Part shown: piece by piece, positions 17,967-21,468 of the stretch
How the letters are laid out: every line of letters begins with the position of its first letter
Numbering within the stretch: position 1 is the stretch's first letter
Assembly: GCA_964483825.1 (NCBI GenBank)
Contig: CAZADD010000005.1
Location: forward strand, 1-32,323
Source of the DNA: an uncultured Oscillospiraceae bacterium
Lineage (GTDB): Bacteria; Bacillota; Clostridia; Christensenellales; CAG-314
DNA: 32,323 nt
Direction: 5' to 3'
The notes under the pieces: model-generated
Database searches by the model: none
What the model saw: only the letters and a program-made list of their open reading frames with translations
What the model was told of the DNA's origin: nothing
Translations under genes and position numbers: made by a program

Positions 17967-19175
17967 ATGAAAGAAATAACCGGAAAATTCAACGTTGCAA
18001 AGTGTTTTGCAACCACCGTGGAAGAAGCTGCGTTGCAACAAATTCAAGCGGTTTGCGACGTTGAAGCGTTTTCCGACAGCAAAATAAGAATTATGCCCGA
18101 CGTCCACGCCGGCAAAGGTTGCACCATCGGCACCACCATGACGGTGACGGACAAAATTGTGCCCGCAATGGTTGGCGTGGATATCGGCTGCGGCATGCTC
18201 ACCACTTACCTTGGCAATGTCGACTTGGATTTTGAAAAAATAGACCAAGTTGCACACGAAATTCCCTGTGGCAGAGAGGTGTGGGATGCAAGACAAGAAC
18301 ATTTCGACCTTGCGCAACTGAAATGTTTCCGCAACTTGAAAGACACCAAGCGTTTGGAAAGATCGTTGGGCACGCTGGGCGGCGGCAACCACTTCATAGA
18401 AATTGACACTGACGAAAAGGGCGGAAAATACCTTGTGATACATTCCGGCAGCCGCAACCTTGGCACTCAGGTGGCGGAATTTTACCAACAAATTGCCGTA
18501 GACTTGAATGTGGGCAAGGAAAACTACTTCCGTGAGCGTGACGAGATAATTCGCACCTACAAGGAACAAGGCAGAAAGACGGAAATTCAACAAGCGTTGA
18601 AAGACCTTGAAGCGCAATTTGTGGCAAAACAGCCCACTTTGCCCCACGACCTTTGCTATCTTTTTGGCACTTTTGTGGAAGATTATCTTCACGACGTGGA
18701 TATTTGCCAAAAATTTGCCGAAAGAAATCGTGCCAAAATGGCGGAAATAATTGTTGAACGGTGCAATTTGACTGCGCAAGAACAATTTCAAACCATCCAC
18801 AACTACGTGGACGTGCAAGAAAGAATTTTGCGCAAAGGTGCCGTATCGGCAAAACTGGGCGAAAAATTGCTTATCCCCATCAACATGAGGGACGGCTCGC
18901 TTGTTTGCATCGGCAAAGGCAACGAGGACTGGAACTTTTCCGCACCGCACGGCGCAGGAAGATTAATGTCCCGTACCGCCGCATTCGCACAGCTGACTTT
19001 GGAAGAATACCAATCGGAAATGAGCGGTATCTACTCCACTTGCGTGACCGCCAACACCTTGGACGAATCGCCCATGGCCTACAAAGACATGAACGAAATT
19101 GTGGAAAACATTCAACCTACAGCGGAAATTGTTTGCAAAATAAAGCCCGTGTACAACTTCAAGGCGGCCGTATGA
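17967..19175 (+). CDS. rtcB: RNA-splicing ligase RtcB (3'-phosphate/5'-hydroxyl RNA ligase)
   Basis: Canonical RtcB motifs MPDVHAGKGCTIG, VGVDIGCGM, GGGNHFIEID, HSGSRNLG and NFSAPHGAGR. AAAGGAG RBS. Confidence 0.95.
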   Translation: MKEITGKFNVAKCFATTVEEAALQQIQAVCDVEAFSDSKIRIMPDVHAGKGCTIGTTMTVTDKIVPAMVGVDIGCGMLTTYLGNVDLDFEKIDQVAHEIPCGREVWDARQEHFDLAQLKCFRNLKDTKRLERSLGTLGGGNHFIEIDTDEKGGKYLVIHSGSRNLGTQVAEFYQQIAVDLNVGKENYFRERDEIIRTYKEQGRKTEIQQALKDLEAQFVAKQPTLPHDLCYLFGTFVEDYLHDVDICQKFAERNRAKMAEIIVERCNLTAQEQFQTIHNYVDVQERILRKGAVSAKLGEKLLIPINMRDGSLVCIGKGNEDWNFSAPHGAGRLMSRTAAFAQLTLEEYQSEMSGIYSTCVTANTLDESPMAYKDMNEIVENIQPTAEIVCKIKPVYNFKAAV

Positions 19176-19273
19176 AGACATAGAGAAGATGTGCCTCTTC
19201 TGCGTGATGTTTATTGCGCAACATTGACAAATATTTGATTTTCACGTAACAAACTATTTGTGCAATAATGTTA

Positions 19274-19314
19274 AAATCCCTGTAAAGGCAATTTGTCTTT
19301 ACAGGGATTTTTTG
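19274..19314. terminator. bidirectional terminator between rtcB and the convergent ATPase gene
   Basis: 12-bp stem ATCCCTGTAAAG / CTTTACAGGGAT followed by T6. Confidence 0.75.
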
Positions 19315-19420
19315 TTAGTTCTTTTTGCCCAAAGAAAGTCCAAATAACTCCTTCCGTTTGGTGCCAATTTCAATACAGAATAACTTTCTAATAATTCAGG
19401 TGTTTTAGGTACGCAATCTC

Positions 19421-20809
19421 TTACGCAACAATATCTACGTAGCTCACAAGCGTTACATTGCCTATTCGGTTTGCTTCGTCGATACAGCCTTTAGTAAAAC
19501 CGGACTTGGAAAACAGATACAAATGTATGTTTTTGTAAGAAAACAGTCGACTTCGCTTCGCAAGCGTTTCCAATACACTTAAATCAACTTTTTCATTTGT
19601 CCATTTGCACTCTGCAAAAAGGGCAGTATTCTTGTCTTGCTCCCCCATAATGTCAATCTCGGCCTGGCATTTCTCAATGGGGTCATTGCCCCACCAACGA
19701 CCGAGGAAAGTAAACTCCACTGGACACTTGCCGATTAAAAGCTGTTTCCATAGATATTGCTTGCAGATATTCTCAAACACTTTTCCCATGTAATCGGACA
19801 GTTTCGGCTCAATGCGTTTATACGCCAAATCGGTTGCCCCGCGCGCGATGATAGAATTGTTCTCTAGCACAAAGCGATGCCAGAAACGGAACATGTTGTC
19901 TTCAATGGAATAAACAGATTTGCGAGATGTCTTTTCGCCATAGGGTGTCTCTTTTTGCACGATACCAAGATTCATCAAGTTCTTAATATAGGTCGAACAA
20001 ACATTGGTATCTTCGCCAACCTTGCTTGAAATTTCCGACATACGTGAAGCACCTGCAGCAATCGCAGTAATAATAGCTGTGTAAATGGCCGGCTCACGCA
20101 CCTCCTGTTTCAGGAGGTTTATCGGCTCTTCATACAAGAAGGATATCGGATTTAGAAAAGTGTTTTTAATGTTGTCTTCAACACTCAAAGCATCATTCAT
20201 CTGCAATAGATACTGTGGCGTACCGCCGACAATACCATAGATCAAGGCTTTATCTTCATCGGACATCTTTTTGAAATAATGACAGGTTTCCTCAAAATCA
20301 AACGGCAAGATCTTCATTTGCGCTGTCCTTCTGCCATACAAAGGTGCTTTGTAGGCAAGAACATGATCTTCCATGTAGGACATGGAAGAGCCGCAAAGAA
20401 TGAGCATAAGCTTAGACGAATCCTTATACTTATCGATTAAAAGTTGAAGAGTAGACGCGAGACTCTTTGAAGAACGGGCAACATACGGATATTCGTCAAT
20501 TGCAAGAACAAGACGCTCTTTTTCCGCAAGCTTAAACACATATTCCAAAGCAGCCTGAAAAGACAGAAATGATGTCTCCGTCTCAATTCCGCTGCTGTAT
20601 TCAATAATGCTTTTACTGAAATTTTCGAGATTTTGTTTTGCATTGCTTTCTACACCCATGAAGTAGATGGCTTTTTTGTCGCCAAGAAATTGGTTAATAA
20701 GTGCAGTTTTGCCCACACGACGACGACCGTAAATTACCGCAAACTCAAACTTGTTTGATGCATATAGCTTTTCCAAAGCATTCAGCTCTCGCTCTCTTCC
20801 AATAAACAT
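19421..20809 (-). CDS. ATP-binding protein of the archaeal-ATPase (PF01637) family, AAA+ with DUF234-like C-terminal domain
   Basis: 462 aa. N-terminus MFIGRERELNALEKLYASNKFEFAVIYGRRRVGKTALINQF has Walker A GRRRVGKT; Walker B LVLAIDEYPY. The C-terminal region resembles the DUF234 restriction-endonuclease-like fold. Confidence 0.85.
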   Translation of the reverse strand: MFIGRERELNALEKLYASNKFEFAVIYGRRRVGKTALINQFLGDKKAIYFMGVESNAKQNLENFSKSIIEYSSGIETETSFLSFQAALEYVFKLAEKERLVLAIDEYPYVARSSKSLASTLQLLIDKYKDSSKLMLILCGSSMSYMEDHVLAYKAPLYGRRTAQMKILPFDFEETCHYFKKMSDEDKALIYGIVGGTPQYLLQMNDALSVEDNIKNTFLNPISFLYEEPINLLKQEVREPAIYTAIITAIAAGASRMSEISSKVGEDTNVCSTYIKNLMNLGIVQKETPYGEKTSRKSVYSIEDNMFRFWHRFVLENNSIIARGATDLAYKRIEPKLSDYMGKVFENICKQYLWKQLLIGKCPVEFTFLGRWWGNDPIEKCQAEIDIMGEQDKNTALFAECKWTNEKVDLSVLETLAKRSRLFSYKNIHLYLFSKSGFTKGCIDEANRIGNVTLVSYVDIVA

Positions 20810-21239
20810 AATCTTACCTCCGTTTTAGAACAGCTATAGTATATCACCGTTTTTAATAATAGTCAAGTACGATTCGGCAAATCTAATTTGACCAATTCAC
20901 GATTTGTCCTATTGTTTATTTTGCCATACAAATTTTTGATATTAACTGTTATTTTATTCTCCTGTAGTTCTACTTACATTGTTGTTGGGAACTTCTCGGC
21001 AAAATTATACACCTAACATAATTTTTTTAATATTTTTTGCAATTAACTATTGACTTTTCATTTAACCCTTTCATAAACTTCAATATTTTCTTAAATTGCT
21101 TACTTTTCAAAACCCCATGTTGCATATTCAAGCGTGCTTTTTTAATAAAGGAAGGAGATGTTTATCTAAACTATTTACAGGAATTAAAGAAAAAATTGAA
21201 ATGTTGTAAAAGAAATTTGGCTTGTAAACAAGCAAAAGA

Positions 21240-21468
21240 GTGCGGCGCAGGACGGTTAATGTCACGTACCGCCGCGTTCGAAAAGCTGACCTTGGAAGAA
21301 TACCAATCGGAGATGAGCGGCATCTACTCTACTTGCGTGAATGTCAACACCTTGGACGAATCGCCCATGGCCTACAAAGACATGAACGAAATTGTGAAAA
21401 ACATCCAACCCACCGCGGAAATAGTTTGCAACATAAAGCCCTTGTATAACTTCAAATCAGCAGTGTAA
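21240..21468 (+). pseudogene. orphan 3'-terminal fragment of rtcB (C-terminal ~75 codons, no start)
   Basis: GAGRLMSRTAAFEKLTLEEYQSEMSGIYSTCVNVNTLDESPMAYKDMNEIVKNIQPTAEIVCNIKPLYNFKSAV aligns with the RtcB C-terminus (18947-19175). The annotated ORF 21037-21468 is an artefact of AT-rich read-through. Confidence 0.85.

Follow-up and report, generated by a model that had tools for sequence, protein, structure and literature searches.

An ATPase gene lodged between rtcB and an orphan rtcB tail in a gut Clostridia contig: a possible scar of homology-anchored insertion-duplication

Results

The stretch of DNA analysed here (the window) is the entire 32,323-bp metagenome-derived contig CAZADD010000005.1 of an uncultured gut Clostridia/Oscillospiraceae-like organism. 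It carries an intact rtcB gene, then foreign DNA with a single opposite-strand gene for a predicted AAA+ ATPase-nuclease of a candidate defence family, and finally, in direct orientation, an orphan 3' fragment of rtcB that stems from a different functional allele. With moderate confidence, we interpret the interval as the scar of a homology-anchored insertion-duplication, produced either by a Campbell-type single crossover or by homology-facilitated illegitimate recombination (HFIR).

The duplicated end of rtcB

The rtcB gene (17967-19175, +) encodes a protein of 402 amino acids (ATG start, MKEITG...) that matches the Pfam family RtcB (PF01139) with an E-value of 1.9e-59 and 202 bits. Residues 1-401 are colinear with 80 homologous loci, the HGAGR histidine motif is present, and the full protein is identical to the database protein P0121, its own record. 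The last 75 codons of this functional gene (tail copy 1, 18950-19175, +) recur at 21243-21468 (+) as tail copy 2, which has no rtcB sequence upstream of it; tblastn with RtcB revealed no further rtcB remains in the window besides the full gene and this copy. The initial annotation had reported that the last 229 bp or so of rtcB recur downstream at about 88% identity, in frame to the stop and with homology ending at both stop codons, and each part of that description is borne out. Between 18947-19175 and 21240-21468, 200 of the 229 bases are identical (87.3%), and the in-register 100-nucleotide (nt) flanks of the repeat show 30% and 28% identity, no more than expected by chance. A repeat search delimited the direct repeat as 18950-19171 versus 21243-21464 (222 nt, 89% identity), and self-blastn of the window gave 213 nt at 90.1%. 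The homology sets in at CGGCGCAGGA, where the HGAGR motif of RtcB has its GAGR codons; no more than these 10 bp are identical at the 5' edge, and the longest stretch without a mismatch (52 bp) lies further inside the repeat. In copy 2 the His codon of the motif is changed to TGC, so that the fragment opens with CGAGR and the catalytic His codon is lost. The homology runs as far as the stop codon of each copy, TGA at 19173-19175 in copy 1 and TAA at 21466-21468 in copy 2; the frame of copy 2 is open through all 75 codons, and 66 of the 75 residues are the same as in copy 1.

Origin of the orphan tail

The two tails differ at 29 nucleotides, 18 of them in third codon positions. By the Nei-Gojobori method dS is 0.53, dN is 0.047, and omega is 0.09, with 18 synonymous versus 8 non-synonymous differences; neutral decay of copy 2 in place would give about 35 non-synonymous changes versus the 8 observed (P ~6e-8). 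When the differences are polarised with the nearest relative (locus L184), 13 changes fall on the copy 2 branch, 10 of them at third positions. Because of the low omega and the third-position bias, the orphan must have been part of a functional rtcB until recently, in a closely related but distinct lineage. Moreover, each tail is the closest relative of the other among 119 homolog tails, with lineage-specific residues common to both, and the donor was therefore probably a close relative. The pattern of divergence thus shows two functional rtcB lineages to be the suppliers of the two tails, copy 2 being the now non-functional orphan of a distinct functional lineage. At two otherwise conserved residues copy 2 is altered (E53K and A73S). 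The heptamer CGTGCAC stands directly after the stop codon in the nearest relative and in the flank of copy 2 and is absent after copy 1, a weak hint that copy 2 may have kept the ancestral downstream flank or position. For annotation, 21243-21468 is best labelled a pseudogene fragment, neither a second rtcB nor a small protein gene.

The inserted DNA

Between the tails lie 2,067 bp (19176-21242) with one real gene, that of the ATPase on the minus strand (19421-20809), in agreement with the initial annotation, which had found nothing encoded there except an opposite-strand PF01637/DUF234 ATPase. The description of this DNA as strongly AT-rich proved overstated: the GC content is 37.8% for the insert and 41.5% for the ATPase gene (GC at third codon positions, GC3, 0.45) versus 47.5% for the rtcB operon (GC3 0.54-0.60). 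The spacer next to rtcB (spacer a, 19176-19420) has 34% GC, and the interval 20810-21242, which includes the ATPase leader, has 28%. An integrase had been reported as absent, and indeed no integrase or recombinase Pfam family was detected in any open reading frame (ORF) of at least 150 amino acids in the 32-kb window, nor were tRNA genes or Rfam matches found.

The limits of the recurring unit were defined by comparison with 105 other ATPase loci that were fetched, falling into about 31 flank clusters, 22 of them testable, with two further contexts besides; the unrelated contexts number about 24 or more. Their nucleotide homology to the window is confined to 19420-20932. At the 3' side it stops at the ATPase stop codon (19420) in every locus, and its upstream limit lies at 20760-20932; counted from the ATG, the homology reaches 0-120 bp upstream. 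The leader that travels with the ATPase ORF (20810-20932, -) holds a sigma-70-like promoter, TTGACT-17-TATACT with a TG extension, at 20866-20838, as detected by a promoter scan. Spacer a and the AT-rich, window-specific spacer b (20933-21242), which ends at a sharp junction with tail copy 2, have no counterpart in any fetched locus, and none of the 105 loci contains rtcB sequence, the cassette never standing beside rtcB there. As judged from these alignments, the recurring unit consists of the ATPase ORF and about 120 bp of promoter leader (~1.5 kb), with the spacers and the rtcB tail outside it.

Within spacer a, the stretch 19194-19223 (-), which begins 19 bp past the rtcB stop codon, gives a 27/30-nt match (E-value 0.003) to the ATPase gene stop codon plus 20 nt downstream in locus L186. 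The match lands exactly on the L186 ATPase stop, and the stretch resembles this terminus better than the window's own ATPase end. It was found in one locus only, and 1 of 20 shuffled queries gave any match; the stretch may, on this weak evidence, be a relic of an earlier ATPase cassette or of an insertion of about 200 bp at the ATPase 3' end.

The rtcB operon in related genomes

The best genome matches to the RtcB of the window are ruminant and human gut metagenome-assembled genomes (MAGs). A homolog search among 5.8 billion proteins gave a next-best RtcB of only 82% identity, the protein being otherwise unique, and exact-protein look-ups with RtcB (402- and 420-amino acid forms) and with the ATPase gave no match to a strain-level relative. 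The comparison set consisted of 80 species-representative rtcB loci (L001-L080) from related species. In at least 80 species of Clostridia the operon WYL / WYL-WCX / (SPFH or DUF2828-DUF7788-vWA) / RtcB is kept, its neighbourhoods being unrelated. A second rtcB tail was found in none of the 80 related loci, nor was a second rtcB within ~9 kb, and ATPase, SHOCT, ORF310 or DnaA genes downstream of rtcB were likewise seen in 0 of 80. The initial annotation had named a shared arrangement in related genomes as an observation that would speak against it, and here the outcome was half in point: related genomes never show the arrangement, having single tails at all 80 rtcB loci.

Across 65 loci the genes 3' of rtcB represent 75 different Pfam families, mostly housekeeping, with no recurrent integrase; the 3' side of rtcB as an integration or defence hotspot was rejected because the downstream genes are diverse and mostly housekeeping. 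In the nearest relative (L184) the contig stops 134 bp past rtcB. One MAG contains two copies of the operon (L007 and L032) with 86-87% nucleotide identity, on different contigs and with different flanks, and the homology of these two copies spans exactly from the start of the first WYL gene to the rtcB stop codon.

The cargo gene

The cargo protein matches PF01637 with an E-value of 4.6e-31 (108.8 bits, cut-off 33.2) and PF03008/DUF234 with 3.3e-26 (92 bits, cut-off 22.5); a weak match to Mrr_cat (3.5e-3) was also seen. The comparison with defence-system databases proposed in the initial annotation gave a match to the PADLOC family PDC-S27 (PDLC04984) at 1.5e-65 over residues 2-426. The motifs are Walker A GRRRVGKT (G28-T35), Walker B D105/E106 and, in the C-terminal part, D386...E400-C-K402. 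Across 76 family members with 34-61% identity to the query, K34 is conserved in 74, D105 in 73, D386 in 74, E400 in 60 (plus 5 with D), and K402 in 61 (plus 5 with R). All motif residues of Walker A and B and of the D...ExK motif of PD-(D/E)XK nucleases are intact in the protein of the window. DUF234/COG1672 has been placed in the PD-(D/E)XK nuclease superfamily (PMC3424549), and the literature treats PDC-S27 as an abundant defence candidate of the 'guilt-by-embedding' kind, a class mostly awaiting experimental validation (PMC12988326). The family comprises 9,925 representatives at 50% clustering, and the solved structures (2qen, 2fna) span the ATPase part only. From its domains and motifs, the cargo is predicted to be an AAA+ ATPase fused to a PD-(D/E)XK nuclease and is a candidate anti-phage gene; presumably it cuts nucleic acid in an ATP-dependent manner, and we infer a function in defence.

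Identity to the cargo is 89-96% in more than 120 protein clusters. At the ATPase loci, nucleotide identity is 83-87% but protein identity is 93-96%, and so the ATPase is under purifying selection. The closest relatives (95-96% identical) stand, every one, in an unrelated context. Neighbours of the ATPase include a truncated GH3 gene and a remnant read as IS21 IstB, which adjoin it in L084; a thioesterase gene and rsmI; Fic and thioredoxin genes; tnpV; an HTH-S24 gene with Dcm methylase and SNF2 helicase genes; IS66 TnpB and MoxR genes; and flagellin and GH77 genes. The earlier statement that DUF234 ATPases are frequent in defence or mobile settings is thus upheld by the PDC-S27 match and by the TnpV, IS21-like, IS66 TnpB, Dcm with SNF2, and Fic neighbours. 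No viral contig carries the ATPase, and a phage origin was rejected on this ground. These contexts show the cargo to be independently mobile, though only as the ORF with its leader.

Some of the ATPase loci have further features. The block ATPase-rsmI-indA is inverted relative to its flanks in L087 compared with L090 (also in L096-L098), in different metagenomes; the flanks are a 4HBT thioesterase side and an OAD_beta/aldo-keto-reductase side, and inverted REP-like arrays stand at the ends, which suggests a repeat-mediated inversion of the block. In L146, a predicted pPIWI-associated nuclease gene (5124-5966; PF18165, 2.3e-37) lies between tnpV and the ATPase.

Direct repeats around the ATPase and Fic genes

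A gene was counted as bracketed if a direct repeat of at least 100 nt lay within 800 bp of both its ends. By this measure 4 of the 22 testable ATPase contexts are bracketed (3 of 21 if the window is left out) versus 3 of 383 ordinary genes of the 80 rtcB loci (Fisher p 2e-4). The repeat periods of the bracketed ATPase cases are ~1.9-2.4 kb. On L183, a contig of 555 kb, the ATPase comes after an intact, repressor-like gene with HTH_3 and Peptidase_S24 domains and before 418 bp that repeat the 3' end of that gene in a displaced, decayed form (83% identity, omega 0.25, three in-frame stops). The L118/L146 group has a tnpV gene on one side of the ATPase and a partial tnpV copy on the other, and in the rsmI context REP-like arrays stand on both sides. 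Since the bracketing sequences vary by site, they are derived from the target or its neighbours and are not ends of an element.

By the same measure, only two of the 17 genes of the window that could be assessed are positive, namely the ATPase gene and a Fic gene, both of them PADLOC single-gene candidates. The Fic/HTH_17 gene (2022-2915, -) matches PDC-S04 at 1.3e-40 and SoFic at 6.8e-29; its flanks share a 105-nt direct repeat with 95% identity (1567-1670 and 3186-3290) that includes the terminator hairpin of the upstream gene.

On L183, the segment with the repressor-like gene, the ATPase and the decayed copy (4858-7857) comes after an ORF read as an ImmA/IrrE-like metallopeptidase; on its other side lie a gene for a Dcm methylase and an ORF of helicase type, the sequence of which we read as SNF2. 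The surroundings thus resemble a defence island or a mobile-element region. Short contigs that might represent circles have ends inside the flanking repeats, with one 37-bp terminal overlap, and assembly broken at repeats explains this equally well.

Discussion

For the interval between the two tails we infer a homology-anchored route. The donor would be DNA of a related lineage carrying the cassette and the 3' end of its own rtcB, the latter serving as the homology arm. In one variant, a circle of ~2.3 kb would undergo a single homologous crossover with the resident rtcB (Campbell-type); in the other, a linear fragment would recombine homologously at the rtcB side and illegitimately at the far end (HFIR), and the donor segment may then reach beyond the tail into the operon. 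By both routes rtcB would stay intact and the last 75 codons of the other allele would be left dead 2.3 kb downstream, a dedicated recombinase being unnecessary. As to which tail came from the donor and how far the donor DNA extends to the left, either assignment fits. Going by what is generally known of RecA, recombination across the 52 bp that the tails share without a mismatch would be expected to remove the cassette occasionally. Without invoking a recombinase, this model accounts for an rtcB left whole, for the abrupt mid-gene junction at 21242/21243, for homology that reaches the stop codons and goes no further, for the low omega, and for the varied brackets.

Other origins of the interval can be envisaged. 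The orphan could be what remains of a second WYL-WYL-SPFH-rtcB operon copy, paralogous or acquired, that was later lost save for its last 75 codons, the ATPase filling the gap with no causal link to the loss. Such a history would find a precedent in the MAG with two operon copies, whose 86-87% nucleotide identity is the same divergence as that of the tails, and any two copies of the operon, as L007 and L032 show, have homology that ends at the rtcB stop; an omega of 0.09 suits two functional genes, and gene truncation near the cassette is known from L084 (GH3, with the IS21 IstB-like remnant). However, tandem copies were never seen, a second rtcB or tail within ~9 kb being found in 0 of the 80 related loci, and the two copies in the MAG lie on different contigs with different flanks; between the tails there is no trace of the other operon genes, and the bracketing in three other ATPase contexts and of the Fic cassette would be left unexplained. 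We consider this origin unlikely, although it keeps an appreciable weight. In-situ duplication, through a long target-site or tandem duplication followed by drift of the non-functional copy, would be the simplest one-step source of flanking direct repeats, and the changes of copy 2 at the conserved residues E53K and A73S could be taken as the beginning of such drift. The omega of 0.09 contradicts it, as a value of at least 0.5 is predicted if one copy was neutral throughout (P ~6e-8), as do the 10 of 13 changes of the copy 2 branch at third positions and the total lack of stops and indels in 75 codons despite a dS of 0.53. In-situ duplication is refuted for the bulk of the tail divergence, and the orphan is not an in-situ duplicate; as an account of the whole structure it is extremely improbable.

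The initial annotation had proposed an element that integrates at the 3' end of a gene, with its mobilising enzyme lost or acting in trans. Formulated as a non-autonomous integrative element, similar to a cis-mobilizable element (CIME) or a satellite, with a tyrosine or serine recombinase encoded elsewhere, copy 1 as the surrogate tail, and copy 2 as the displaced host tail, this proposal would agree with the attL/attR-like anatomy (a sharp start within the gene, an end at the stop codon, an intact gene, a lower-GC insert), with the ancestral downstream motif that copy 2 seems to retain, and with the 10-bp identical block CGGCGCAGGA at the 5' edge, where a crossover core is expected. Against it, there is no recombinase in the 32 kb and no recurring unit, since only the ORF and its leader are common to the 105 loci, none of which is at rtcB; the 3' end of rtcB is unoccupied in 80 species, with diverse housekeeping neighbours, and the brackets elsewhere are unrelated (an HTH-S24 tail, tnpV, REP arrays), which leaves no common att site, and the ATPase is absent from viral contigs. 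What stands of the earlier proposal is therefore foreign mobile DNA 3' of an intact rtcB with a second 3' end displaced; the discrete targeting element does not stand, nor does its lost or trans-acting integrase, and we regard an integrative element as improbable. An assembly chimera, in which the rtcB regions of two strains were joined, would be conceivable for a metagenome-derived window in which a 52-bp perfect block could let the graph path switch between strains. A switch within a shared block would yield a single chimeric tail, however, and no duplication; the junction of spacer b with tail copy 2 has just 10 bp in common with rtcB, too short for a k-mer mis-join, and an equivalent structure exists on the independent 555-kb contig L183, so a chimera is very unlikely.

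Several observations weigh against insertion-duplication as well. The required donor, with the ATPase beside rtcB, was not found among the 80 rtcB and 105 ATPase loci, and the organism has no close relative in the search of 5.8 billion proteins, where the next-best RtcB is 82% identical. Operon paralogs with ~87% nucleotide identity coexist in one MAG, which favours the loss of a second operon copy, and the window is a metagenome-assembled contig. As to the bracketing, 18 of 22 ATPase contexts do not have it; in one of the positive contexts the repeats are dispersed REP arrays, such as stand beside many genes in any case, and the tnpV positives are 4 of 33 loci of a single context cluster. Finally, the geometry varies from case to case, with the truncated copy at the promoter end of the ATPase in the window and at its 3' end in L183.

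HFIR has been proposed for orphan 3' ends and C-terminal displacement in type VI secretion system (T6SS) and rhs loci (PMC5361080, citing Jackson 2009, Koskiniemi 2014, de Vries & Wackernagel 2002, and Prudhomme 2002). The arrangement in the window resembles that of the rhs, contact-dependent inhibition (CDI) and T6SS loci (PMC5361080) in the order of an intact gene, acquired DNA, and a direct-orientation orphan 3' fragment of a different allele, and in the conserved upstream sequence that would act as a homology anchor with no dedicated recombinase. In those loci, however, the 3' ends that are displaced code for different toxins, and their displacement is what matters functionally. In the window the two tails are equivalent and the displaced one serves no purpose; what is functionally new is an unrelated opposite-strand gene. 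The target differs too, being an RNA-ligase operon instead of a locus for polymorphic toxins. With Campbell-type insertion-duplication the window shares one homology segment per side, a gene left intact if the arm reaches its end, a sharp non-homologous junction at the other end of the arm, and reversibility through the repeats. Insertion-duplication of this type is known mainly from plasmids and laboratory constructs; unlike such constructs, the window has no replicon or plasmid backbone, its arms are 10-13% diverged, and the circle is hypothetical. Integrative and conjugative elements, integrative and mobilizable elements, CIMEs, and prophages at gene 3' ends likewise leave the gene intact, displace the original tail, and bring in lower-GC DNA. 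They differ from the window in having an integrase, conserved ends and recurrence at the same target; the cargo here is one gene, and other duplicates flank it elsewhere. The cargo itself conforms to PADLOC PDC-S27 and COG1672 (PF01637 ATPase_2 with PF03008), with a full-length match and with the ATPase and PD-(D/E)XK motifs intact, although that family is itself a candidate one. The cargo thus belongs to a known candidate family and the scar would be of a known kind; modestly new is the preferential bracketing of this family, and of a second candidate on the same contig, by homeologous neighbour DNA.

The window may be regarded as a sequence-level example of a single-gene defence candidate entering a new site without an integrase or a transposase while leaving the neighbour gene functional. 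For recent events of this sort, an in-frame orphan gene fragment that differs from its neighbour mostly at synonymous sites offers a cheap diagnostic. Should larger surveys confirm the enrichment of bracketing, homology-anchored insertion-duplication may prove to be an underestimated way in which gut Clostridia turn over their defence genes. A bolder and improbable extension would be that PDC-S27 genes, and perhaps other single-gene candidates (Fic/PDC-S04), spread as recombinase-free units of ~2 kb, leaving a genome as circles formed between flanking repeats; a captured piece of a neighbour gene would travel along and supply the homology arm by which the circle enters related genomes in Campbell fashion, and the cassette's own ATPase-nuclease would possibly stimulate the breaks or the excision. 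Were this true, the route could in general be recognized by the orphan homeologous gene tails that it leaves.

Other features of the contig

The operon begins with two overlapping genes for WYL-type regulators, at 14091-15404 (WYL, +) and 15368-16312 (WYL/WCX, +), with profile matches to Pfam WYL (1e-4) and WCX (1.4e-4) and to PADLOC WYL (4e-12 and 4.5e-8); most of the 80 related loci keep this pair ahead of rtcB. RtcR is the regulator known from E. coli, and the adjacent WYL-type pair stands where E. coli has RtcR. The third operon gene, SPFH/Band-7 (approximately 16809-17906, +; Pfam Band_7 3.4e-28), is placed by our own ORF reading, with the start MTTTIINQ; it is kept in many related loci, and in others a DUF2828/DUF7788/vWA gene takes its place. 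Between the convergent rtcB and ATPase genes, a hairpin with a stem of 18-19 bp and an A-run and a T-run on its sides (19273-19311; inverted repeat I2, 95% complementary, with a terminator-like match) is likely a bidirectional terminator.

A family of REP-like intergenic repeats occurs at 13523-13935, 21561-21734, 22606-22758, and 26431-27136, with modules such as AAGCGACTTCGTCGCCAGTTAAAAGATAAGAGAGAAAAG and CACTATTCAC; the copy at 21561-21734 lies outside the cassette and is mentioned for context only. One pair, 13706-13861 (upstream of the first WYL gene) and 21571-21731, with 87% identity over 161 nt, encloses the block of WYL operon, ATPase, and orphan tail. The operon as a mobile unit flanked by these repeats (R1/R2, at 13.7 and 21.6 kb) was rejected, as the repeats belong to the dispersed REP-like family; when upstream and downstream flanks of the operon were compared, just 2 of ~42 other loci had even 27-46 bp of similarity. 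Similar REP-like repeats are seen around the ATPase in L087, L090, L098, and L100.

Downstream of the orphan tail the gene order is a SHOCT membrane-protein gene, an unknown ORF, and dnaA. The SHOCT gene adjoining the tail has 41.7% GC and a GC3 of 0.45, lowered like those of the ATPase gene. A second SPFH/Band-7 gene and two SHOCT membrane-protein genes (one with TM2) are found on the contig, at 4022-5458, 6016-6999, and 21869-22657. Finally, a direct repeat of 186 nt (89% identity, 23950-24135 versus 24473-24655) lies in an AT-rich region directly downstream of dnaA (24732-26096, -); because the cumulative GC skew, profiled over 14-26 kb, has a local minimum at ~24.4-24.8 kb, an oriC near dnaA is possible, and the repeat region 23950-24655 may be part of it.

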